A DNA stretch of 64,000 nt from positions 32,001 through 96,000 of the forward strand of contig JBHLPH010000004.1 of assembly GCA_048939625.1 (NCBI GenBank), in the 5' to 3' direction. Shown here piece by piece: positions 47,568-59,832 of this stretch (position 1 is its first letter; every line of letters begins with the position of its first letter). Under the pieces are notes generated by a model. That model was not told where the DNA came from and did no database searches. It saw nothing but the letters and a program-made list of their open reading frames with translations. Position numbers and translations under genes: made by a program. The stretch is from Promethearchaeota archaeon. Its GTDB lineage: Archaea; Asgardarchaeota; Hermodarchaeia; Hermodarchaeales; Hermodarchaeaceae.

Positions 47568-48539
47568 ATGGACCTCATCGACAAACAAATTATTTTCGAG
47601 CTTCTGATTAGTTATCGCGCCTCGTACCAAGCTATCGCAGAAAAACTCAATTTATCTGTCAATGCTGTTAAAAAACGATTTGAGAAGTTAAAAAATGTTG
47701 GGATAATCCGCGGTGGAGTTTTAGTTCCAATGCCAGTGATGAAAGGAACTGAAGATTGGCTGGCATTATTACGAATGGATGAAGCTACAGCTTCAGATGA
47801 CAGTCTAGAAAAAATTGGGTCTCACGTACTAGTTCAATCGGGAAGCCTTCTGACAGATGGAAGCATCCTCTGTTTCGGGTTCTATGGCGGAGCACAAGAT
47901 CTTCAGGAGATAGGGGCTTTTCTCCGCCAAGTTCAAGGTGTCAAATCTGTGGAATTTCATACAATTCTAGCACCACAAGGAAAGAAGACTGATTTGGCGA
48001 AGAACGATGTAAAGGTACTCCGATGTCTTCGGGAAGCCCCCCGAATCCCGATTAGCAAAATTACTGAAAAAACAGGTATAAATTCAAGACGAGTTCGGAA
48101 TATTCTGCAAAAATTAATTGGAGAAAACGGAGTCGAACCGATCTATTATATTAATTGGAAATCTCAAGGAAAAACTCATCCGAATGATGTTAGTTTCTTA
48201 GTGAGAGTTCATTGGAACCTAAATGCGGGTGGTTATACTGCCTTTATGATTCAGATTCGACACAAGGAAGGTGTGGAAGAAAGGAAAAAAATTACTGATA
48301 TTCTGACAGATAATTATTCTTTCGAGTTTTGGTATGCCTATGCTTCTGCATTTGAGCCCGTGATATTCTGTGTGTTCTTGGTTGAGCACATGAGGGATTC
48401 GATAGAAATTGTAAAAACAGTAGAGCAGATTCCTCAAGCAGTTGAGGTGTATCCGATTTTCGGGTATCCTACGAAGGTTTTTCGTAGTCAGGTTGATGAT
48501 TATTTTGAAGGAATTTTCGAGAATATTGATCAGTACTGA
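47568..48539 (+). CDS. Tandem Lrp/AsnC-type wHTH regulator (paralogue 1)
   Basis: 'MDLIDKQIIFEL..YRASYQAIAEKLNLSVNAVKKR' plus second HTH 'DVKVLRCLREAPRIPISKI'. Confidence 0.85.
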   Translation: MDLIDKQIIFELLISYRASYQAIAEKLNLSVNAVKKRFEKLKNVGIIRGGVLVPMPVMKGTEDWLALLRMDEATASDDSLEKIGSHVLVQSGSLLTDGSILCFGFYGGAQDLQEIGAFLRQVQGVKSVEFHTILAPQGKKTDLAKNDVKVLRCLREAPRIPISKITEKTGINSRRVRNILQKLIGENGVEPIYYINWKSQGKTHPNDVSFLVRVHWNLNAGGYTAFMIQIRHKEGVEERKKITDILTDNYSFEFWYAYASAFEPVIFCVFLVEHMRDSIEIVKTVEQIPQAVEVYPIFGYPTKVFRSQVDDYFEGIFENIDQY

Positions 48540-48640: not shown

Positions 48641-48717
48641 GGAAAGCCGGGCCCTGGTTGTCCACCGGTGCCCCAGAGGCCCGACACGCCGTTTGTCGAA
48701 CCTCAGGTCCGGTTTCC
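48641..48717 (-). other. Structured 3' RNA element A
   Basis: Minus strand GGAAACCGG...CCGGCTTTCC closing stem; inner 11-bp hairpin GAGGTTCGACA/TGTCGGGCCTC with two G.U pairs. Confidence 0.65.
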
Positions 48718-48725
48718 ACCCATCC

Positions 48726-48869
48726 TCAGCGAATCATAAGCGGAAGTGCCTGTTCGAGACGTGGACCTGCTCGGGGATTGGTTCGACATCCAGCAAATAA
48801 TCGCTCTGCACAGGTCATGCGAGCGACGTGAGCGTGATGATGAAGTTTCCGAGCGGTTTTCTTCTTCAT
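48726..48869 (-). CDS. Basic peptide A, 47 aa (three-member family)
   Basis: MKKKTARKLHHHAHVARMTCAERLFAGCRTNPRAGPRLEQALPLMIR; GGAGG upstream; aligns with peptides B and C. Confidence 0.75.
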   Translation of the reverse strand: MKKKTARKLHHHAHVARMTCAERLFAGCRTNPRAGPRLEQALPLMIR

Positions 48870-48921
48870 GTTGCGTGTACCTCCAAGGTTGTGTTTAACG
48901 AAACAGGGATACGGAAAATTA

Positions 48922-49004
48922 GATATGAATCGATGGGAGCCAATGAGTGCAAGAACAAGCAAAATGAGCAGTATTAATGCCTCATTTTGCACAATGTAGT
49001 GTAA
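48922..49004 (-). promoter_or_regulatory. Conserved promoter box and palindromic operator, unit A
   Basis: Minus TTGCACT-N5-GCTCCCATCGA-TTCATATC; plus TTGCAC-AATGTA-GTGTAA at 48987-49004. Confidence 0.75.
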
Positions 49005-49053
49005 AGTTCGAAAAATACTGCTTCAGAATATGAATAGAGGTATCTTGTAGTTG

Positions 49054-49398
49054 TTAGATCCAGCCACGGAATTTGGCCAGAATCCACAGAATAGCAAAAG
49101 GAGCGATAACCATAAGTTCAATTTGTAAAACAATAATGAAATCCCCTACAGAGGTAGAACCATAGATACTAGAAGTGGCCACCCCACAGAAGAACGCATT
49201 ATACCAAACGAAACACATATCAACTATTGTGAAAAGCGCGGCGAGTGTTCCACCCAGATCAAAAAGCCGACACCCTTTATTCTTCAGGATACTGAAAATT
49301 TGATAAAGTCTTAAGCGAGAATCCTGTGCTTTTCGGGTCGCATTCTGTAAAGTAACAGGTTTGGAACCATTTGGTTTCTGATTATTAGGGAAAGCCAT
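49054..49398 (-). CDS. Hypothetical two-TM protein (start MAFPNN)
   Basis: GGAG before ATG 49398; two hydrophobic segments. Confidence 0.5.
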   Translation of the reverse strand: MAFPNNQKPNGSKPVTLQNATRKAQDSRLRLYQIFSILKNKGCRLFDLGGTLAALFTIVDMCFVWYNAFFCGVATSSIYGSTSVGDFIIVLQIELMVIAPFAILWILAKFRGWI

Positions 49399-49772
49399 TT
49401 TTGTTCTCCATCCAATTTCGTTGAATTCACCCGAAGACCCGTTCGGGCGTTTCATGCCATTAAAGGTTGATTTTACATATCAATCAATGGGAATTAAATC
49501 ATGCAAAAAAATCGAAGCTACTTAAGGAAAAACTCCTTTTTTTGCGATAGGGGGTTCAAAAAAAGAATCTATCTGCTATTAATTTCCATTTGATTAATCT
49601 AAGAGGTTCAAAAGTACTAACCATCTTCTTTTTGGAGCAGTTTAATAAAATGTGAATACTGCTTCTTCTTTAGGCAATTGCAGGAAAAAAAGTCGCTTAT
49701 CTTGAATTTCAGAATCTAATGTGTTAAGGCTTATAAGGGATTAGAGAGGTTTAGCAGTCGGAGGGTTAAACC

Positions 49773-49901
49773 CTGTCATCAACGTGGTTAAACAATCCTT
49801 GGCTGATTGTTCAAGACCCCGGATTTCCCATAATGACGACTATCCTGATTCTCGTGATTATTATCTTAATCATTGAAATCTATAAAGTCAGGAAGGATTA
49901 G
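49773..49901 (+). CDS. Small single-TM peptide P2, up to 42 aa, apparent CTG start (ATG at 49833 gives 22 aa)
   Basis: LSSTWLNNPWLIVQDPGFPIMTTILILVIIILIIEIYKVRKD; TTATAA about 30 bp before GGAGG at 49760-64. Confidence 0.55.
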   Translation: MSSTWLNNPWLIVQDPGFPIMTTILILVIIILIIEIYKVRKD

Positions 49902-49943
49902 GTATTCGGGATTCTGATTCGAATTAGTCATATAGGGAACCAC

Positions 49944-49978
49944 GGGAGTTTTATCAACTCCCTCTCCCTCCTTTTTTT
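49944..49978 (+). terminator. Hairpin plus T-run after P2
   Basis: GGGAGTT-TTATC-AACTCCC, then pyrimidine tract ending in T7. Confidence 0.5.
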
Positions 49979-50115
49979 CAATAGGTTCGAGGTTTTTTCA
50001 AACTAAAATTGCCTTTGAATCCAGAGAAGCGAAGATAGTGAGTTTTCCCATATGAAAATAAATAGAATAAAGATTACCAATATCAGGATTTGAATTTAGA
50101 CCTTGAGGGAGAATC

Positions 50116-53100
50116 ATGAGTAGATTTCCTTTGGGCTTAAGTTACGTATTTATTATCATTTTAATTTGCCCTTCAATCCTAATGCAACCATATTCACCAT
50201 TGCTTCTTGAAGACTATCCCTATAGTACTCCGAAAGACGCGGAATTTTGTACAGAACCACTAGCTTCCGCACATTTATCTACCTCTAAGCGAGCTTTGCC
50301 TATTCAGGGTGGTTCTTGGGTACAATTTCATTCTGAAGCAGAAATCGGGGGAGAGCCAGAGATAACACTTCTTTCGTCAGATACGATCCGATTAGTAGTC
50401 TTACTAGAGTGCCCAGGAATGTGGCGAGATGACATTATATTAAATCATACTGTGTATGACAGACTTGAAATCATTTCAGCAGAGTCAACCGCCGATGTTG
50501 GTAATCCGAACATCCCTGTTCTGACAAAGATGCTAGAAGTTCCTTATGACATTGATGTTTCAGTCGAACTTCTCGATTCAGAATATCAGGATTTATCGGA
50601 TTACCATATTGCACCTAGGCAAGAGTTAGTTTATCCTACTCCATCAATAACGTACCCAAGATTCTTCATTAACACAACAGTCTATAACCAGAATTCGTTT
50701 TATCCAACCTCACTGACTTGGATTGAAGGAAGTCTAGCAGCGAATCCCATTGTAATCCGTGGCCATCGAATAATCACATTGCACTTAGCTCCACTCCAAT
50801 TTAACCCAGATAGACATATTTGTCGAGTATTTTCAAAGATCAAAGTGGCTGTACGATTTGCCCGACCAGCAGCAATTGAACCAATAAGTTCTCGGCTTCA
50901 GAGCTCGGCTTTTGAGGGAATATTAGAGAATTATCTTCTGAATTATCCTCATGGATTTTACAGCGGACTCTCAACATTACAGAATACTACTCCTTGGATT
51001 CCTCCGATTTGGACAATTCTCCCACCGTCAAAACAGATGCCCACGAGCGGATGCGAGTATCTTATTATTTCCCATGATGATTTTGTCGAGAAAGTTAGAC
51101 CATTAGCAAACTGGAAGATTCAGAAAGGCATAACGACAAAACTCATTTCGATTACTGGGGTTTTTAATGAGTTAAACTGGGTAGTAACGTCTGATCCAGA
51201 TACTATTAGGAGTGCAGTTTCAGAATACATTCAGTGGGCATACAATAGCTGGGATTTAGTACCAACTTATGCCCTCCTTGTTGGAGATGAAGCACATATT
51301 CCTCCACATTATATGACAATTCATCCACAGTATCTTACATTGAGTCCAACGGACTTAGGATACTTTCAGCTCGATGGACCCGATTATCTCCCGGAAATGC
51401 TGCATGGGCGACTTTCCGTTGACTCTGATACTCAAGCTGAAACCTTTGTCAATAAAATTCTTCAATACGAACAGAATGGCGTAACTGATCCAACGGGTAA
51501 TTTTTATAACAGAATCTGCGCTAGCGCATACTTCCAAGATAGAGATAATAATGGACAAGAAGATCCTGCATTTCGTCTAACTCAAACTGCTGAAAAGTTT
51601 CGAGAGTATGTAACCTCACGTTCGAATCCTTATGATGTGGACTATTTCTATGTTGCAGGAGCGTACAACTTGGACCCCTTTGCCATTACTCCCTCAACCT
51701 ATGAAGATGGAACACCCCTTGATTCAAGTTTAGCAGGCCATGATTGGTTCCATCATTTTACACAAGCACAGAATGTCATCGATACAATCAACCTTGGATC
51801 GTTTTTGCTATTCAATCTTGGCCATGGAGAATCGCGGAATTTTTACCGTCAATCGAATGGCACTTTTGGTCCATTTGATGGTTGGCAGTATCCACCCTTT
51901 GTAACAGACCAGTTTCACCTGTTGACAAACGGAGACAAACTACCCGTAGTTCTGAGTTTAGATTGTAATACAGGCTGGTTTGATGAAGCCTACGATTATA
52001 GTCCAGCAAATTACGAATCCTTCTCCGAAGAGATTACCAGAAAGGCTGGCGGTGGTGCTGTTGCAGCACTTGGGGCTTCACGGCCCGTTCAGGCACCCGT
52101 GAGCGCGTTAATGCTGGAGGGAATTGCTGATGCAATTTGGGCTGATTATGATGGAAATATCGCCACAGGTGGTTTGAATAATTTGGGACAGATCATCCAC
52201 TATAGCAAGATGCTAGTTATGGAACAATGGGGATATTTGGGTGAAGAATTGTGTTCTGTAAATACATTTGAACTCTACCACCTTTTTGGAGATCCAGAGA
52301 TGCCATTATGGACGCAAGAGCCTGAGGATCTGGAGGTTTATTATCCAACACATATTGGCATGGAGGGAGAGCAACGCTTTGTTGTCCAAGTGACTCGGAG
52401 CGGATTTCCTATTGGTTCAGCAAGAGTCTGTCTTCAAAAAGGCGGAGAGTTATATGCAGTGAATTTCACGGATTCTAGAGGTTATGCGTATTTTTCAGTT
52501 AATCCCATAACAAGTGGATCTATGAATTTGACCGTGACAGCTAAGAACCATCTTCCATATACCACAGTAATTTTCGTTACCAGTGGTGGAGGAGTTCAGT
52601 TAAGTCGAGCCTCTGGGGCTGGAGAAACCACGATTACTATCACTGGAACAAAATTTACAAGTGCTAATATGGTCCATCTCTTCATAGGAAACCCATGGGA
52701 AGAAGAGGGAAGTGGTCAGGTACCTGTGGATGGGAGAGTTGAATTCACCTATACAATTCCAAGTGAACAAACAGAACCACTGAATTTTTGGCTCCGTGAA
52801 ATCCAAGTTATAAGTATTGATCCTCCGATTATTTTCACAGTCCGTGCCGGCGTTTCCTATTACTCACCGTATTTTGAAGCTCCAGATTTGTATACCTATT
52901 GTCAATGGAATGAAGAAACATGGCATTTGAATCCTAAAGGATCATCTGCCAATGAGAATCCCTGTTGGGATAATCCTTCGATAGAGGTGAAAGATGATCA
53001 GGGAAATGTAGTTACATCAGGAAACTTACAAATTGGTTCTATCTATACTATTCATGCTGATATACACAACGCAGGACCAATTCATGCAAATAACGTCAAA

Positions 53101-53715
53101 GTGTTCTTCAACTGGTCTAGATGGGGAATTGGCCAAGTGACTTGGCATGCGATAGGAAATGACACAATTGATGTCCTGCCTTGGGGTCAGTCGATGGCTG
53201 TAATGGTCTTTGTGCCAACTGTTGAAGACATGATTTGTATTCGAGTAGCAGTATCACATCCTGAAGATAGCAATCCTTACAATGATTGGGGTGTTGAAAA
53301 CACCTTAGCACTCTTCACTCCGGACCGCATCGGCATCGAATTGCCAGTCTTCAACCCAACTTCCAGAGAAAGCCATATGTTTATCCAATTGACTCAAGAT
53401 AACATATTAGGTGCTTTGTGGACAGCATCAGTTGATCATATTTCAGATTCACAACTAGGACCAAGTGAATCAACTAATATCATAATCAGTTTCGTTATCC
53501 CAGACGATGTTAGAGAAGGTGATATGCACAATTTCACAATAAACGCCTTTATCGAACAATATATCACAGGGGGAGTCAGTATTTGTCTAACGAAAAGACC
53601 GCCTCAATTAGTGATACCATGGCACCTAATCCTCCCGCTAATTGTTTTAGTGATTATCAGTATTATCATCGTATTCGTTTTTAAGAAGCGCTTTCGAGAA
53701 AGTGATGAAAATTAG
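50116..53715 (+). CDS. Membrane-anchored C25 (gingipain-like) cysteine peptidase
   Basis: Signal-like N-terminus, propeptide ('GNPNIP','PLQFNP'), 'YLII','YALLVGD','GRL', catalytic GHG and DCNTG, 'LFGDP', Ig/CARDB-like region, C-terminal TM. Confidence 0.88.
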   Translation: MSRFPLGLSYVFIIILICPSILMQPYSPLLLEDYPYSTPKDAEFCTEPLASAHLSTSKRALPIQGGSWVQFHSEAEIGGEPEITLLSSDTIRLVVLLECPGMWRDDIILNHTVYDRLEIISAESTADVGNPNIPVLTKMLEVPYDIDVSVELLDSEYQDLSDYHIAPRQELVYPTPSITYPRFFINTTVYNQNSFYPTSLTWIEGSLAANPIVIRGHRIITLHLAPLQFNPDRHICRVFSKIKVAVRFARPAAIEPISSRLQSSAFEGILENYLLNYPHGFYSGLSTLQNTTPWIPPIWTILPPSKQMPTSGCEYLIISHDDFVEKVRPLANWKIQKGITTKLISITGVFNELNWVVTSDPDTIRSAVSEYIQWAYNSWDLVPTYALLVGDEAHIPPHYMTIHPQYLTLSPTDLGYFQLDGPDYLPEMLHGRLSVDSDTQAETFVNKILQYEQNGVTDPTGNFYNRICASAYFQDRDNNGQEDPAFRLTQTAEKFREYVTSRSNPYDVDYFYVAGAYNLDPFAITPSTYEDGTPLDSSLAGHDWFHHFTQAQNVIDTINLGSFLLFNLGHGESRNFYRQSNGTFGPFDGWQYPPFVTDQFHLLTNGDKLPVVLSLDCNTGWFDEAYDYSPANYESFSEEITRKAGGGAVAALGASRPVQAPVSALMLEGIADAIWADYDGNIATGGLNNLGQIIHYSKMLVMEQWGYLGEELCSVNTFELYHLFGDPEMPLWTQEPEDLEVYYPTHIGMEGEQRFVVQVTRSGFPIGSARVCLQKGGELYAVNFTDSRGYAYFSVNPITSGSMNLTVTAKNHLPYTTVIFVTSGGGVQLSRASGAGETTITITGTKFTSANMVHLFIGNPWEEEGSGQVPVDGRVEFTYTIPSEQTEPLNFWLREIQVISIDPPIIFTVRAGVSYYSPYFEAPDLYTYCQWNEETWHLNPKGSSANENPCWDNPSIEVKDDQGNVVTSGNLQIGSIYTIHADIHNAGPIHANNVKVFFNWSRWGIGQVTWHAIGNDTIDVLPWGQSMAVMVFVPTVEDMICIRVAVSHPEDSNPYNDWGVENTLALFTPDRIGIELPVFNPTSRESHMFIQLTQDNILGALWTASVDHISDSQLGPSESTNIIISFVIPDDVREGDMHNFTINAFIEQYITGGVSICLTKRPPQLVIPWHLILPLIVLVIISIIIVFVFKKRFRESDEN

Positions 53716-53783
53716 GATTTTTCAATAAGTGGAAAGAAAACAAATGTGCCATACTCTATTTATAGTCGTGAAGACCACAGAGT

Positions 53784-53799
53784 GTGGATTCGGACCTTT
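53784..53799 (+). promoter_or_regulatory. 16-bp motif GTGGATTCGGACCTTT upstream of regulator 2
   Basis: Identical copy at 54982-54997; both end 83-86 bp before the MD start codon. Confidence 0.6.
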
Positions 53800-53872
53800 A
53801 GGGCGTTCTACAAGCAGAATGGAGTAAATTAGTGATTTAAGTTCTCCATATGACCTCAACATATACCTTAAC

Positions 53873-54850
53873 GTGATTGTTATGGATCTGGTTGACAAGA
53901 ACATTGTGTTCGAGCTTTCCGTCAATTATCGTGCTTCATATCAGACGATTGCCAAGAAACTAAATCTTTCTGTGAATGCTGTCAAGAAACGTATTGAGAA
54001 ACTAAAGGAGAGTGGAATAATTCGGGGAGGTTTATTACTTCCAATGAATGCAATGTTGGGGATGGAAGATTGGATAGCCATTTTGCATACTAAAAACCCC
54101 ACCCCTTCAAGTAATTTTCTTGACACATTGGGAAAACATCCATTGATGACTGCCGCAAGTATTCTTACAGATGGAAGTATTTTGTGCCATGGGAGTTACT
54201 CAGGAGCATATGGTCTTCGAGATATTGGATCGTTTTTACGGCAGATACCTGAAGTGGACTCTGTAGATTTTCATACACTTCTCTCTGTGCCAGGGAAACG
54301 TTGTGAATTATCAACTGCTGACTTGAAAGTCCTGAGATGTCTCTACGAAGAGCCTCGAATTTCTATTATAGATATTTCTAAAAAAACTGGCCTTAGTCCT
54401 CGCCGGATTCGAATGAGCATACACGAATTAATAGGTGAAAACGGCTCCGAACCGGCTCTATACTTGGAGTGGGAGCCGAGGGGTGGTTCTCGTCCTGAAG
54501 AGGTTAGTTTTAAGGTTTCAATTCACTGGGATTTGAATGCTGGTGGATATACGGCATTCATTATGATGATTCGACACGAAGAGGGGAGTGTGTCACAGTC
54601 TAAGATTGTTAGAATGTTAAAAGAACAGTATCCAATGGATTTTTGGTATGCATATGCCTCGGCGTTTGAGCCTGTGATTTTTTGTATTTTTGTCGTTGAA
54701 CACTTACGAGACGCTACAAACATTGCAAATACGATTCGGAAAATCCCTGAAGCGATTACTGCAAATACGATTTTTGGTTATCCAACTAAACGATATCGAA
54801 GTCCTATTGATGACTATTTTGAAGAACTTTTCAAGCAGATCGACGACTAA
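53873..54850 (+). CDS. Tandem Lrp/AsnC-type wHTH regulator (paralogue 2; likely start 53882)
   Basis: Same two-HTH layout; shared 'LNAGG', 'FWYAYASAFEPVIF'. Confidence 0.85.
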   Translation: MIVMDLVDKNIVFELSVNYRASYQTIAKKLNLSVNAVKKRIEKLKESGIIRGGLLLPMNAMLGMEDWIAILHTKNPTPSSNFLDTLGKHPLMTAASILTDGSILCHGSYSGAYGLRDIGSFLRQIPEVDSVDFHTLLSVPGKRCELSTADLKVLRCLYEEPRISIIDISKKTGLSPRRIRMSIHELIGENGSEPALYLEWEPRGGSRPEEVSFKVSIHWDLNAGGYTAFIMMIRHEEGSVSQSKIVRMLKEQYPMDFWYAYASAFEPVIFCIFVVEHLRDATNIANTIRKIPEAITANTIFGYPTKRYRSPIDDYFEELFKQIDD

Positions 54851-54981
54851 TTAGGGTTTTCACAACCTAATCGCTTTCCCTTCATTTTGCTTTACGTCTA
54901 ATTTGATACTGATGTCATCAGTAGTTAGGGGGTCCTTTTAGGTGAGCCGAACAAATTTTATGCTTTAAAATAGTGGTGTAA

Positions 54982-54997
54982 GTGGATTCGGACCTTT
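54982..54997 (+). promoter_or_regulatory. 16-bp motif GTGGATTCGGACCTTT upstream of regulator 3
   Basis: Identical to 53784-53799. Confidence 0.6.
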
Positions 54998-55073
54998 GAG
55001 ACAGCATTGGGTGGTTTTGTTAAGACAATACAGTCTTCAAGCTACTATCCTGCTAGCTGCAAAAAGGCATTAA

Positions 55074-56054
55074 GTGGTGGCAATGGACGCCGTGGACAAG
55101 AACATCATTTTCGAGCTATCGACAAACTATCGTGCTTCATATCAGGCTATTGCTAAGAAAATGGATCTTTCAGTGAATGCTGTTAAGAAGCGAATTGAGA
55201 AACTCAAAGAAAGTGGAGTAATTCGGGGTGGGTTATTACTTCCTATGAGGGCAATGTTGGAGATGGATGATTGGGTTGCCTTATTACGCACTGAAGATCC
55301 AATTCCTTCTGATCAGTTTCTTGATGTTATTGGGGCACATCGGTTAGTGGGATCTGCGAGTATTCTTACGGATGGTAGTATTTTGTGTTTTGGGTGGTAC
55401 CCTGGCTCTTCAGGGCTTGAGGAAATTGGTACATTCTTGCGTTCAACTCCTGGTGTTGAGTCGGTGGAATTTCATACGATTCTTGCGGATCCTGGGAAGC
55501 GCTGCGAGTTGTCTGTATCTGACGTGAAGGTGCTTCGATGTTTGCATAAAGAGCCACGGATGTCAATTAGTGATATTTCTAATGAAACGCGCCTTACGCC
55601 CCGCCGTATTCGGAAAATCATTGATGCGTTAATTGGTGAAAATGGTTCAGAGTCCAATATCTATTTGAATCACCCGTCCAGAGGGGGGAAGCGACCAGAA
55701 GAGGTATGCTTTCAACTAAGTTTGCGTTGGAATTTGAATGCTGGGGGACATACCGCATTTGTAATTATAATTCGCCATGAAGAGGGGGCCCAACCCCGTT
55801 CAAAGATTGTGGATATTCTCAAGGAGAACTTTCCGGTGAAATTTTGGTATGCGTATGCATCAGCCTTTGAGCCGGTGATTTTTTCTGTGTTCGTGGTTGA
55901 GCATATGCGCGAAGCCAGTGAAATCATTGAGACAATTCGTAAGACGCCTGAAGCGATTTCAGCGAATGCAATCTATGGATATCCTTCACGAATATTTCAC
56001 AGTCCCATAGATGATTACTTCGAAAAGCTCTTCAAACGACTAGAAAGAGACTAA
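55074..56054 (+). CDS. Tandem Lrp/AsnC-type wHTH regulator (paralogue 3; likely start 55083)
   Basis: Close paralogue of 53873..54850. Confidence 0.85.
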   Translation: MVAMDAVDKNIIFELSTNYRASYQAIAKKMDLSVNAVKKRIEKLKESGVIRGGLLLPMRAMLEMDDWVALLRTEDPIPSDQFLDVIGAHRLVGSASILTDGSILCFGWYPGSSGLEEIGTFLRSTPGVESVEFHTILADPGKRCELSVSDVKVLRCLHKEPRMSISDISNETRLTPRRIRKIIDALIGENGSESNIYLNHPSRGGKRPEEVCFQLSLRWNLNAGGHTAFVIIIRHEEGAQPRSKIVDILKENFPVKFWYAYASAFEPVIFSVFVVEHMREASEIIETIRKTPEAISANAIYGYPSRIFHSPIDDYFEKLFKRLERD

Positions 56055-56088
56055 AGCAGTGAAAGTTTTGACATAAGGAAAAGGTCTG

Positions 56089-56865
56089 TTAGAGGTCCCA
56101 ATCATATTTTGTGAAGAAGAAAGGATAACAGTCATCAGGTTTGAGTTCTTCAAGAGTTTCAGCAGGTAATAACCAGATATCAGTCTGAGAAGTGTAAGCA
56201 GCTGTTGTGACTTCGAGAACTGGGATTTCATGAATTGGATCATCGAGGGACTTGTTGAGTTTAAGCTCACCGGGTCCGATTTCAATTGGCCCGTAATTGA
56301 TTTTGTTAAGTAAACGGAGTAGTCGAGGATGGTTATCGACGGAAATGCCATCTATACCGGGGAAAGCTTTGAGCAGAAACCAAGGAGTTGCACTAAAGGC
56401 TTCTGGGAAGGGAGTCTGCATGATTGCTTTAATTTCGATTATAGGGATACCATGGCGGGTACACACACCATGTACAGCATTTCCTTTGCGTGTGAGCGTG
56501 ATTGAATCTGCGATTTTTTTGGGAAATCCATATAATTCACGTCCTGCGGCCATAGCGAGATCATTATCAACGGGCATGGCGAGGCAATAGCTTCCCTGTT
56601 CATTATTATATTGGACTTGCACGGAGAGTGCGGCTTCGTTGTAGGGAGCAATGAAGTTAGGTTCGAGAAATTCCGCGACATATGCTGTTCCTAGCGCTTC
56701 GGGGGAGGGTTCCAGTGGAGGGGGAATTATGCGTTTAATGACTTGGAGGTCAGTTTTGAAAATTACCATTAACATGTTGACCTTACCGAGGAGGAAGCCC
56801 TGTGCAAATTTCTTGCTTCGCTTTTTGAGGTCGTCTCGGGAGTGGACTAAACTCATTATAGACAC
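56089..56865 (-). CDS. Acetoacetate decarboxylase (Adc) family protein
   Basis: 'IIPPPLEP', 'PYNEAAL', Schiff-base motif 'AGRELYGFPKK'. Confidence 0.88.
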   Translation of the reverse strand: MSIMSLVHSRDDLKKRSKKFAQGFLLGKVNMLMVIFKTDLQVIKRIIPPPLEPSPEALGTAYVAEFLEPNFIAPYNEAALSVQVQYNNEQGSYCLAMPVDNDLAMAAGRELYGFPKKIADSITLTRKGNAVHGVCTRHGIPIIEIKAIMQTPFPEAFSATPWFLLKAFPGIDGISVDNHPRLLRLLNKINYGPIEIGPGELKLNKSLDDPIHEIPVLEVTTAAYTSQTDIWLLPAETLEELKPDDCYPFFFTKYDWDL

Positions 56866-56876
56866 CGGTTTGTATT

Positions 56877-57677
56877 CTAAGCTGGCTTTGTATTAAAGCG
56901 CTTAGTGTGTCGGTGTCGAAAAACAAAAGTAATTCCGAAAAGGATGACTAGCAATAAAACTCCAAGTCCTAGCCAAAACAGTGTTGTGTAGTTTTGTTCT
57001 TCGAGAGAAAGAATTCCTAAGGTATGGAAGTTGCTGGCTGTTAGTTCACGTGTGACGCGATATGTGTAGATTGCGTGTTGAGAGGCGAGGAGCTCGTAGG
57101 TATACTTGAGAAGAATTCCCTCCGTGTAGTGGAAGTACCAGTTTTCGCTACATTGTTGAAAATCGTCATCAATCGAAAACCATGCAACTGATTGGACTCG
57201 CCAACAGAGAAAGGTTCCGAATTCAAGAGAGATGTAGCTTGATGTGAGAGGGTAATTCCCTGTATACGGGGAGAAAGCCACAGAATGCCCATGGTGCCAT
57301 CTGGAAGTATTGACCCAAAGTGGAGGTTGGAGAGGTCTTTCAAGCAAAGTTCCATTTAATAATATGATTCGCCATGTTGAACTATTGAGGAACATTTCCC
57401 CCTGCAATATATCCTCGTTAGTGGACGAGATATTGATGAGGAAAAGCGAGTTACGTTGCACTGATGTTGCCGATTGGATTGTGAACTGTTCATCCCATTC
57501 ACCCTGCAGGTCATCAGTTACATGGTAGTTGAGAAAAAGCCCAGTGGGTAAAGATGCAAGCCTAGTCGGGATAGAAATTAAGAATGACAGTAATATGACG
57601 AATAACACAAACCGAATTCGTTTCTTTCTTAAAATCCTCATCGTGAACCCTTCAGTGTCAAAGATTGGCATGGGCAA
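56877..57677 (-). CDS. Hypothetical surface protein with N- and C-terminal TM
   Basis: Two terminal hydrophobic helices; 'WYFHYTEGILLKY'. Confidence 0.65.
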   Translation of the reverse strand: MPMPIFDTEGFTMRILRKKRIRFVLFVILLSFLISIPTRLASLPTGLFLNYHVTDDLQGEWDEQFTIQSATSVQRNSLFLINISSTNEDILQGEMFLNSSTWRIILLNGTLLERPLQPPLWVNTSRWHHGHSVAFSPYTGNYPLTSSYISLEFGTFLCWRVQSVAWFSIDDDFQQCSENWYFHYTEGILLKYTYELLASQHAIYTYRVTRELTASNFHTLGILSLEEQNYTTLFWLGLGVLLLVILFGITFVFRHRHTKRFNTKPA

Positions 57678-58635
57678 TCATTTCATCAATCATTGATTCG
57701 CGTAATCCAACATATTTTCGGAGAGGAAAGCTGACCCAAATCTCAACCTTCGAGATATTAGGTGCTTTTCGTATCACGGGAAGGATTTTTTCGGATTCAC
57801 GAATGTGGTTTACAATGAAGACACAATAGATAATCGGTTCAGTGGCAGCAACAAAGGAAAACCAGAATTCGAAGGGGAAGTGGCTTTTGAAGTATTGGAC
57901 AACTCCTTCAGGAGATCCTTTGCCTTCTTCCCAGTTAGTTCGAACAACAAACGCATTACCGCCTCCTGCATTAAGGTCCCAGTAGATGCGAAAATGTAAG
58001 GCAGCTTTGGATTGGCTAATTTCCGGTTTGTATTCTTTATCAACAAGAGTTTCGATGGGAGTTCCAACCTTGCCATGAAAGTCTTGGATGACGCTGCGAA
58101 TGCGTCGAGGTGTTAAACCAGTTTGCTCTGAAATTTGTGAGATAGGCATCCGTGCATCCTCTCGTAGAGATCGGAGGACTTTCAAATGTCCGTCTGTCAT
58201 AGGAATTTTTTGACCACGATCTGCAATGAGAGTGTGAATTTCAACGTTCGCGACGCCTGGCAGTTGGCGAAGAAATCCACCGAGTTCAGATAGACCTTGT
58301 GCTCCGATATATTCTGCGAAGACGAGGATGGATCCATCAGAAAGATAACCAGCACTGAAAACGGATGGATGTGCACCTATGCGGTCTAGAAATTCTGGAC
58401 TGAAATGGGTGTCGCTAAGAGTGATTCGGGCAAGGAACCATTCAGCGTCCATCATGGCTAGACTGAGATACACATAATATCGTTGGATAACTCCTTCTTC
58501 TTCCAGTTTCAATATTCTTTTCTTCACAGCGTTCACTGTAAGGTCTAGCCGAGTTGCGATTGTTTGATAAGTGACTCGACAGTTGGTTGCGAGTTCGAGA
58601 AGAATGCTTTTGTCTACAATATCCAATGGAGGCAC
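57658..58635 (-). CDS. Tandem Lrp/AsnC-type wHTH regulator (paralogue 4, more divergent)
   Basis: 'LDIVDKSILLEL..NCRVTYQTIA..LDLTVNAVKKR', 'WDLNAGG', 'FWFSFVAATEPI'. Confidence 0.85.
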   Translation of the reverse strand: MPPLDIVDKSILLELATNCRVTYQTIATRLDLTVNAVKKRILKLEEEGVIQRYYVYLSLAMMDAEWFLARITLSDTHFSPEFLDRIGAHPSVFSAGYLSDGSILVFAEYIGAQGLSELGGFLRQLPGVANVEIHTLIADRGQKIPMTDGHLKVLRSLREDARMPISQISEQTGLTPRRIRSVIQDFHGKVGTPIETLVDKEYKPEISQSKAALHFRIYWDLNAGGGNAFVVRTNWEEGKGSPEGVVQYFKSHFPFEFWFSFVAATEPIIYCVFIVNHIRESEKILPVIRKAPNISKVEIWVSFPLRKYVGLRESMIDEMIAHANL

Positions 58636-58815
58636 CTTATCTTGGGGGTTGACCTGAATTGGCTGTTCTCGGATATATTTACGAGGAATGGCGAAGCTAG
58701 TCTTTGGATTCTCCGTTGTCAGGAATTCAGCGAGATATAATTCGTAAGCACTCCGGTTTAATCCTTTTGAAATGTAGCATGCCTTTTGAATGCCCTAATA
58801 AAAAATAAATAAAAA

Positions 58816-58940
58816 AGCCGGGTCTTCAGGGTATCCTTCCCCTCCATTTCGGCACTTCCCGGTCCGTGCGCATGGGTGGCAATGGACCATTTTGGACAAC
58901 GGATTCGGAGTTTTCGTCCGGTTACCGAGAAGACCCGGCT
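58816..58940 (-). other. Structured 3' RNA element B (125 nt) followed by U-tract
   Basis: Perfect 12-bp closing stem AGCCGGGTCTTC/GAAGACCCGGCT, inner GGAC/GTCC and GGTCC/GGACC hairpins, then TTTTTATTTATTTTTT. Confidence 0.7.
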
Positions 58941-59000
58941 AAGGTCAGCGTCCAAGGTCCGTGTCACTGGTGTGTCAGTGTCGATCCCTAGTAATCATGA

Positions 59001-59123
59001 TTAGCGTCGTGAAGTTACGACAGCAAAGGTGATTCGGTCTCGTGGAGTGCCTTTGGGGTTTTTCGCACCGGTAACAGCGCGTTCTGCAAGGGCCATTTTG
59101 GCAATTTTCTTTTTCGGAGCCAT
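59001..59123 (-). CDS. Basic peptide B, 40 aa (three-member family; not in ORF track)
   Basis: MAPKKKIAKMALAERAVTGAKNPKGTPRDRITFAVVTSRR; GGTGA upstream. Confidence 0.8.
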   Translation of the reverse strand: MAPKKKIAKMALAERAVTGAKNPKGTPRDRITFAVVTSRR

Positions 59124-59175
59124 TTTTGTTCACCGTCCCGCCGATGCGAGACAATGATACCTAACCCGAAAATTG

Positions 59176-59260
59176 CATATTATTCGATGGGAGCTTGTCA
59201 GTGCAAAAATCCGACAAAAAGAGAGAGAGTGTGCCAACTTTTGCACTAAGTGGTGCAAAA
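59176..59260 (-). promoter_or_regulatory. Conserved promoter box and perfect palindromic operator, unit B
   Basis: Minus TTGCACT-N5-GCTCCCATCGA-ATAATATG; TTTTGCAC-TAAGTG-GTGCAAAA at 59239-59260. Confidence 0.8.
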
Positions 59261-59298
59261 ATCAGGAACGCACCCTGAAAAGGACTTGGGTGGGAGTA

Positions 59299-59423
59299 AA
59301 CCGGGCCTACGAAAGCTCCCGACCACAAGAACCACGAAATTAGATCACCCGTTGCTGAATCGCTACTGCGCCGATTCCCCAGCAACAGGAAGAGGAACAA
59401 GTGGCGGTTGTGTAGGCCCGATT
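59299..59423 (-). other. Structured 3' RNA element C (125 nt)
   Basis: Closing stem AATCGGGCCTAC/GTAGGCCCGGTT (one G.U); inner CCTGTTGCT/AGCAACGGG and GAATCG/CGATTC. Confidence 0.7.
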
Positions 59424-59481
59424 GACGTGGCTGCAAGGGGTTTTTGGTGATCGTTTCTTCACCATAGGGATTCCTCACAGC

Positions 59482-59622
59482 CTAGCGTCGGCTAAGGACC
59501 AGCATGACTGCATATCGAGTCCGAGGTTTTGCTACCGGATGGGGGTTACGGCAGCCGGCTACGGCACGTTCAGTCGCCGACATATCTGCTAGTTTCTTAT
59601 GTTTATGTTCGGATTTGGCCAT
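59482..59622 (-). CDS. Basic peptide C, 46 aa (three-member family; not in ORF track)
   Basis: MAKSEHKHKKLADMSATERAVAGCRNPHPVAKPRTRYAVMLVLSRR; GGAGG upstream. Confidence 0.8.
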   Translation of the reverse strand: MAKSEHKHKKLADMSATERAVAGCRNPHPVAKPRTRYAVMLVLSRR

Positions 59623-59697
59623 CTCAAATCCCTCCAATTGTGTGTCACCAGGATCCCTGTTGGGAATCCCAGAGCAAATACGAATCGGCGTCCGTTT

Positions 59698-59832
59698 GAT
59701 AAGAATCGATGGGAGCAGCCGAGTTCAAAATCCCGCAATTTCCACTTTTGGATTCAGAAATCTTGAACTTCGCAATGCAAAACCGAGTAAGAGGATTTGC
59801 CTTTTTGCGAATTGTTGAACTCTCAAGTGTAA
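59698..59832 (-). promoter_or_regulatory. Conserved promoter box and two phased operators, unit C
   Basis: Minus TTGAACT-N5-GCTCCCATCGA-TTCTTATC; plus TTGAAC-N6-ATGCAA (59763-80) and TTGAAC-N6-GTGTAA (59815-32). Confidence 0.75.

Follow-up and report, generated by a model that had tools for sequence, protein, structure and literature searches.

Dual-function small RNAs, of which SgrS/SgrT, RNAIII/delta-haemolysin and SR1/SR1P are examples, are short transcripts that combine an open reading frame (ORF) of fewer than 50 codons with a separately conserved structured RNA domain. Small RNAs that encode small proteins have reportedly also been found in Methanosarcina mazei. Asgard archaea are the closest known archaeal relatives of eukaryotes, and their small proteins and non-coding RNAs are almost unexplored and largely missed by gene callers. 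Here we analyzed a stretch of 64,000 nucleotides (nt) from a Promethearchaeota archaeon (assembly GCA_048939625.1, contig JBHLPH010000004.1, positions 32,001 to 96,000), a member of an uncultured Asgard lineage from sediment samples. This stretch is called the window below, and positions refer to it unless another locus is named. Three micro-genes in the window, A, B and C, encode basic peptides of 40-47 residues and resemble dual-function small RNAs in layout, the ORF and the RNA domain presumably sharing a transcript.

A family of basic micro-proteins

The original prediction, made from the letters of the window and a list of its ORFs, had placed three micro-genes on the minus strand, each behind a site resembling a Shine-Dalgarno (SD) sequence, and had read them as paralogues encoding an unrecognised family of basic peptides. 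All three ORFs were recovered at the predicted positions:

48726-48869, minus strand: micro-gene A, 47 amino acids (aa) plus stop; SD GGAGG at 48880-48884; A-type orthologues in other genomes
59001-59123, minus strand: micro-gene B, 40 aa plus stop; SD GGTGA at 59130-59134; ratio of nonsynonymous to synonymous substitution rates (dN/dS) 0.11-0.18
59482-59622, minus strand: micro-gene C, 46 aa plus stop; SD GGAGGG at 59630-59635; dN/dS 0.077 (five orthologues)

The SD-like sites lie 6-10 nt before the start codons and are of the GGAGG type in A and C and GGTGA in B. Micro-gene A is the ATG-started tail of an 88-aa ORF with a GTG start, and C is nested in a 51-aa ORF with a TTG start. We take the 47-aa ATG form of A to be the gene and consider the 88-aa reading unlikely because a conserved promoter box (48930-48940) would fall inside it and because A-type orthologues start near the ATG. 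Pairwise BLASTP relates C to B at E=8e-10 and C to A at E=2e-8, far above chance, so that the three are clear paralogues, and a MAFFT alignment reproduced the one proposed earlier, with invariant positions in an ER...G...NP...PR core. The predicted similarity of the peptides despite diverged DNA was borne out as well: C and B are identical at 18 of 36 aligned residues, use different codons at 9 of these 18, and agree at only 0.31 of third positions.

Selection on the ORFs was measured across five orthologue sets. In the proposed frame dN/dS is 0.08-0.18 compared with 1.4-3.1 in the two other frames, which identifies purifying selection on the protein frame. In a nine-genome alignment of the C-B locus, first and second codon positions are 82-93% identical and third positions 50-57% (C: 0.50 at the third versus 0.82-0.84 at the first and second; B: 0.57 versus 0.84-0.93). 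SD-like sites of the GGAGG/GGTGA type precede the start by 5-10 nt in 56 of 65 family genes, and start and stop positions are conserved across more than 60 copies. The ORFs are very short and their neighbouring sequence is GC-rich and structured, as would be the case for chance open frames within non-coding structured RNAs. Frame-specific selection and codon periodicity nevertheless effectively refute such an origin, and with the SD sites and the fixed starts and stops they leave it virtually no credence. We therefore regard A, B and C as real genes under selection, their translation following from sequence and conservation.

With a profile of A, B and C, three additional intact copies came to light elsewhere in the 2.3-Mb assembly, each on another contig than the window (E 2e-9 to 2e-6); none of them had contributed to the profile. 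Relatives were found by profile search in 14/14 genomes of the genus and in 3/4 of the sister genus, at 1-7 copies each. A 27-sequence profile placed the family in 17 of the 18 genomes of one GTDB family, comprising two genera, and matched none of the roughly 380 genomes covered elsewhere in the phylum. The homologues with intact frames on which the original prediction had made its claim depend are thus present in 17/18 genomes of the taxonomic family, and the frame disruptions that would have spoken against it are rare: 64 of 66 copies are intact. The two interrupted copies (L066, G014:C6:44748-44882, and L065, G003:C98:6145-6264) carry three stops and one stop, respectively, and are probably decaying paralogues.

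Larger collections added few relatives. A HMMER search of 1.8 billion representative proteins returned only about 21 tiny clusters, apart from long repetitive proteins that we judged spurious. In an index of 5.8 billion proteins there were 43 matches, every one of them unnamed or labelled 'hypothetical protein'. Annotation of the family is not entirely lacking: it has no family name, but several homologues already stand as 'hypothetical protein' in NCBI records of metagenome-assembled genomes (MAGs). No fused or longer forms were seen in these searches except two over-extended ORF calls of the same genes. A further scan of contigs yielded five relatives in Asgard MAGs and two bacterial loci. 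One of the latter encodes an ABC-transporter ATPase that shares a single word with the family by chance; in the other, the translated stretch is full of stop codons and not clearly in frame. Both were treated as chance. By these searches the family appears to be confined to one Asgard archaeal lineage, with more than 60 members. Its subfamilies (C, B, A, the 'GSKW'-tailed D1 and D2, E and others) recur across the genus, and the duplications that produced them therefore predate it.

The median member has 46 aa, a net charge of +9, an isoelectric point of 11.4 and a grand average of hydropathy (GRAVY) of -0.76. Its longest hydrophobic run is about 7 residues, so that no segment reaches transmembrane length. 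A variable lysine-rich N-terminus is followed by hydrophobic residues at -7, -4 and -2 from an invariant E-R, then by A-x-x-G-x-(R/K)-N-P and, a few residues on, by a proline and an arginine. The C-terminal part consists of a 6-7-residue hydrophobic stretch, in which hydrophobic residues alternate in a strand-like manner, and an S/T-R-R end. Alignments of 27-46 diverse members show no variation at E, R, N and P and almost none at G, P and R. AlphaFold2 was run on alignments of 27 and of 46 rows; either run modelled a helix-loop-helix whose turn contains the NP loop, at a modest predicted local distance difference test (pLDDT) score of 66-70.

None of the reference collections assigned the peptides to a family. 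Pfam gave no family for A, B or C at E<=10, NCBIfam and PADLOC gave no family match, and PHROGs returned only two rows at E ~0.3, both of unknown function. Shape searches with both AlphaFold2 models (Foldseek against the PDB, and ESM Atlas) retrieved only non-specific helical-hairpin rows, and the ESM Atlas feature search had no usable match. A resemblance by eye to eukaryotic eL29/eL39, at the N-terminus and around RN(G/P), found no profile support and was dropped. As far as these collections reach, the peptide family appears to match no described protein family.

A structured RNA linked to the micro-genes

A second conserved component follows the ORFs. Past the stop codon the order is a hairpin of about 50 nt, a closed RNA element that begins 57-66 nt past the stop, and a T-run. 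In the window it is represented by the following features:

59430-59481, minus strand: stop-proximal hairpin of the C transcript; its minimum-free-energy fold recurs in all C-type orthologues
59299-59423, minus strand: C-type closed RNA with a GGGCCUAC/GUAGGCCC closing stem and CCUGUUG about 30 nt in (CCGUUG in orthologues)
58808-58942, minus strand: B-type closed RNA with a 12-16-base-pair GCCGGGUCUUC stem and a highly conserved interior, then a T-run at 58795-58815
48641-48725, minus strand: 3' structure of A, closed like the others but shorter, with GGGCCCGGCUUU at its end; folding energy -42.7 kcal/mol (z = -2.4)

The closed element is 115-140 nt long and is bounded by a 10-16-base-pair stem of the form GGGYCUUC... 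/ ...GAAGRCCC. It occurs after members of subfamilies B, C, E, L012, L023 and L068, and in D2 loci after a second small ORF of 27-31 codons, in which only the hydrophobic-RR tail of the family is retained. The downstream hairpin that the original prediction had named as a mark of a system is present in this closed form at 33 homologous loci. CCGUUG lies 29-36 nt from the start of the stem in 22 of these 33 elements, compared with 0.15 expected by shuffling. Pairing is kept by compensatory changes in the closing stem and in one inner stem; among C-type orthologues the closing stem is maintained in this way while interior identity is only 0.4-0.64. Searching our own 2.3-Mb genome for the closed-element pattern recovered micro-gene loci only, plus one match within a coding region, which lies inside a long coding frame on contig C71 and was set aside as chance.

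The RNA interior varies between subfamilies. That of the B type is 90-95% identical across the genus, above the coding sequence, and is therefore constrained as RNA sequence. Within the genus, a covariance model of the B element found one copy in each of 11 of the 14 genomes; beyond the genus it found none. In two species of the genus (G002 and G004; loci L017, at L017:1153-1280 on the minus strand, and L016) the B-type RNA occurs with neither a B ORF nor a B promoter, directly behind the own element of a C-like gene, with covariance-model E values of 1e-10 to 5e-12. Because it is kept without the B ORF and is more conserved than coding sequence, the B-type RNA appears to be a functional entity itself, more than the tail of the B mRNA.

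A micro-gene cluster was observed on contig C3 of our own genome (L006:1483-2479, plus strand) and at 10 orthologous loci. Here a second ORF with its own SD begins about 35 nt behind the 45-aa family member and is itself followed by the closed RNA; a third, very diverged family-like ORF (L006:2333-2479) lies some 400 nt further along.

Across the whole window Rfam gave no match at the gathering score, and a relaxed threshold produced one chance-level row (E 9) in 58600-59800; no tRNA or tmRNA was found in the window. Candidate targets complementary to the conserved RNA loops amounted to single 12-mers, at chance level, and were discarded. Judged against Rfam, the RNA element seems to match no described RNA family.

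A shared promoter cassette and the neighbouring genes

The micro-genes also have their upstream regions in common. The features involved, together with the regulator gene next to B, are:

59695-59730, minus strand: promoter cassette of C, with a TTTTGAAC half-site, the invariant GCTCCCATCGA box at 59706-59716 and an A/T-rich TATA-like stretch; identity 0.91 (9 orthologous loci)
59173-59208, minus strand: promoter cassette of B, with TTTTGCAC at 59201-59208, GCTCCCATCGA at 59184-59194 and a TATA-like stretch; identity 0.80-0.91
48919-48956, minus strand: promoter cassette of A, with TTCTTGCAC, GCTCCCATCGA at 48930-48940 and a TATA-like stretch
59239-59260, no strand: perfect 8+8 palindrome TTTTGCAC-N6-GTGCAAAA separating C from B, conserved at 0.76-0.80 identity within the genus
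57658-58635, minus strand: 325-aa double winged-helix AsnC-type regulator directly downstream of B; Pfam HTH_24, HTH_AsnC-type

The cassette common to A, B and C lies 60-90 nt before the start codon and consists of a TTTTGCAC-like half-site, a spacer of about 10 nt, GCTCCCATCGA and the A/T-rich TATA-like stretch. Twenty fetched loci contain it, and its identity over the genus is 91%, so the upstream box, the other mark named in the original prediction, is kept at 20 homologous loci. The exact GCTCCCATCGA 11-mer occurs five times in the genome: three times at A, B and C and twice within coding regions, the two additional boxes (contigs C12 and C58) lying inside long coding frames and being attributed to chance. 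We interpret the cassette as a putative B recognition element with its TATA box (BRE/TATA), and the palindrome as a candidate operator.

Within 11 kb lie the genes of four paralogues, all some 325 aa long and carrying a pair of AsnC-type winged-helix domains, at 47568-48539 (+), 53873-54850 (+), 55074-56054 (+) and 57658-58635 (-); the one at 47568-48539 is convergent with A. Homologues of these regulators adjoin the micro-gene in 12 fetched loci, all of cassette-bearing types, and none was found at D or E types. From this arrangement, the AsnC-type regulators beside A-, B- and C-type genes probably bind or control the shared cassette.

The flanks of the three copies outside the window are unrelated to one another, containing a dehydrogenase, an ABC ATPase with a GNAT protein, and a beta-lactamase-like protein (names read from translations). 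No conserved partner genes of the kind expected for toxins or for ribosomally synthesized and post-translationally modified peptides (RiPPs) were found in these three flanks.

Several other genes lie between the micro-genes of the window. A 1199-aa C25 peptidase (gingipain-like) with a propeptide and a C-terminal membrane anchor is encoded at 50116-53715 (+). Between two of the regulator paralogues lie an acetoacetate-decarboxylase-family gene at 56089-56865 (-) and, at 56877-57677 (-), the gene of a 266-aa protein with no Pfam match, membrane-anchored as read from its translation. GC content is 0.40-0.43 in the 46-58 kb stretch and about 0.46 in the rest of the window; because of this lower GC, the stretch may be an accessory region.

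Proposed function and comparison with described systems

The micro-genes are independent, selected and coding, they encode a highly basic product whose polar loop is invariant, and a private RNA family is tightly linked to them. By sequence and conservation, each gene is predicted to be a small transcription unit of its own, running from the promoter/operator cassette through a brief 5' leader, which contains a hairpin and a strong SD, to an ORF of 40-50 codons and a stop-proximal hairpin; in about half of the family the closed RNA and its T-run come last. We propose that the peptide would take the form of a small helix-loop-helix or an arm built around the invariant loop ER...G.(R/K)NP and would bind nucleic acid, most likely the family-specific RNA element, recognised through the parts common to all paralogues, namely the GGGYCUUC closing stem and the CCGUUG at its fixed position. 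The outcome could be a small ribonucleoprotein or control by the peptide of the fate of its own RNA. This model, a nucleic-acid-binding peptide whose likeliest partner is the family RNA, is one that we hold at somewhat less than an even chance. We put forward more tentatively, and with greater doubt, that the micro-proteins and the GGGYCUUC/CCGUUG RNAs constitute a new class of small ribonucleoproteins or peptide-RNA modules, having originated and expanded inside one Asgard lineage, in which each paralogous peptide would recognise the shared stem and motif of a paralogous RNA and the variable, partly ultra-conserved interior would carry the activity, be it target pairing, ligand binding or catalysis.

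Among the functions listed in the original prediction, the evidence favours a peptide-RNA pair or RNA binding. It argues against a membrane toxin because there is no transmembrane stretch, and against a processed precursor because no conserved maturation genes are seen. Several points weigh against pairing of the peptide with the family RNA. The B-type RNA persists without the B ORF in two species, so that its own peptide is dispensable for it, although the genomes of both contain other paralogues. About 30 of 63 members (D1 and most second-genus copies) have other terminal hairpins in place of the closed element, and the peptide therefore needs no element in cis. The interior of the B RNA is invariant and hence offers no covariation test, and the confidence of the fold models is modest.

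The size, charge, MAK-type N-termini and strong SD sites of the family are like those of small ribosomal proteins, and a strong stem followed by a T-run resembles a 3'-end protection or termination module. The peptides could on these grounds be small basic proteins that associate with RNA or the ribosome in general, perhaps ribosome-bound proteins specific to the lineage, with a 3' element that only stabilises or terminates very short, highly expressed mRNAs, and the half of the family that has no specific element is consistent with this. We consider it unlikely, since 2-7 diverged matches per genome, in one taxonomic family only, would be odd for core ribosomal proteins, the ribosomal models of Pfam give no match up to E 10, and a mere stabiliser needs neither an interior more conserved than the ORF, nor a fixed CCGUUG, nor retention without the ORF. 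Binding to DNA, through a minimal HU/IHF-like arm with the proline of the RNP motif at its tip or as partners of the AsnC-type regulators, is distinctly less probable. A profile search of the PDB did rank the HU-beta arm as the best sequence match (E 0.71), and ER, G, R/K and NP align gap-free to E. coli HU-beta, over a stretch too short for significance. The pattern F-x2-[FIM]-x-[VL]-x-ERA...R/K-N-P presumably overlaps the classical HU signature, in which case the proline would correspond to the intercalating one. The strand-like alternation in the C-terminal segment, the regulator genes adjoining 12 loci and a genome without an HU gene point the same way. However, hhalign against HU gave a probability of 1.2% (P 0.044), which is not significant; the Pfam HU model PF00216 matched nothing in six frames of the whole genome at E<=10, with controls matched; and HU was absent from the matches among the 1.8 billion representatives. 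HU presents a beta-ribbon arm on an alpha-helical dimer body, whereas the micro-proteins are 40-50 aa long without a dimerisation body, and both AlphaFold2 models, at low confidence, are helical and not beta-hairpins. The D and E subfamilies, moreover, have no nearby regulator. Homology to HU/IHF is not demonstrable, and we keep the resemblance as a low-probability analogy.

Small toxins of a type I toxin-antitoxin-like kind, or cationic antimicrobial peptides, whose translation structured mRNAs would restrain, would also be multi-copy, strongly cationic and shorter than 50 aa with long structured untranslated regions; the lower-GC surroundings of A, B and C and an ABC ATPase gene adjoining one copy fit this too. 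Yet the hydropathy of the peptides and the length of their hydrophobic runs speak against it, as does the lack of any signal or leader sequence; strong conservation of polar core residues (ER, NP) would be atypical of pore-forming peptides, and strong SD sites point to efficient translation. With no conserved immunity, export or antisense partner in the flanks of the three copies outside the window and no PADLOC match, we regard toxins as very improbable. Still less credence goes to cis-acting leader or arrest peptides that would govern downstream RNA folding, or termination and read-through to the next gene. A short conserved ORF, hairpins at fixed distance and a T-run would suit such a role, a regulator gene follows B, and the R-N-P motif recalls proline-containing arrest motifs. 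But conservation extends past NP to the C-terminal SRR, the downstream genes differ wholly between loci, A has no co-directional downstream gene, its neighbour being convergent, and the B-type RNA persists when its ORF does not.

Taken together, the locus is a well-delimited test case: it combines an orphan peptide family under selection, a private family of RNAs whose landmarks are fixed, a common cassette and candidate regulators adjoining. Peptides of 40-47 residues can be synthesised and the RNAs transcribed in vitro, so that binding, structure and regulation are approachable without culturing. If the pair were a new ribonucleoprotein, a novel type of RNA-protein module would be added to those of archaea; a peptide that proved to be an HU-arm-like minimal DNA binder would show how small a DNA-bending element can be. 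Either way, the family merits an entry in protein and RNA family databases for annotation.

Compared with known systems, the novelty seems to lie at the level of the family, as neither the protein nor the RNA appears by sequence to resemble anything described. Small basic ribosomal proteins (eL39, eL41, bL34) have a similar length, charge and strong translation signals, but the micro-proteins occur in one taxonomic family as several diverged paralogues per genome, with a private RNA element, and match no ribosomal Pfam or NCBIfam model. Type I toxins (Hok, Ldr, Ibs, TisB) are likewise multi-copy tiny ORFs on highly folded mRNAs, often missed by gene callers; they are hydrophobic membrane peptides with an antisense RNA, whereas the micro-proteins are hydrophilic, at +9, with no transmembrane segment and no antisense partner seen in the flanks of the three copies outside the window. 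The HU/IHF arm (PF00216 Bac_DNA_binding) resembles the micro-proteins, short of significance, around F-x2-[FIM]-x-[VL]-x-E-R-A-x(3-4)-G-x-[RK]-N-P and the I/V-rich hydrophobic segment after it, as well as in a basic character and, presumably, in nucleic-acid binding; HU, by contrast, has 90 aa with an alpha-helical dimerisation body and a beta-ribbon arm, in place of the 40-50 aa and the helical AlphaFold2 models of the micro-protein. Proteins of the Rop/Rom type are helical-hairpin RNA binders, and the short helix-loop-helix predicted here, with a structured RNA stem as its proposed partner, is alike by analogy only: there is no sequence similarity, and the micro-protein is basic while Rop is acidic to neutral. 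From the dual-function small RNAs with which we began, the micro-genes differ in that neither peptide nor RNA shows sequence similarity to the named examples, with no Rfam match and no base-pairing target or seed found, and in that their RNA domains form a paralogous family which co-duplicates with the ORF.

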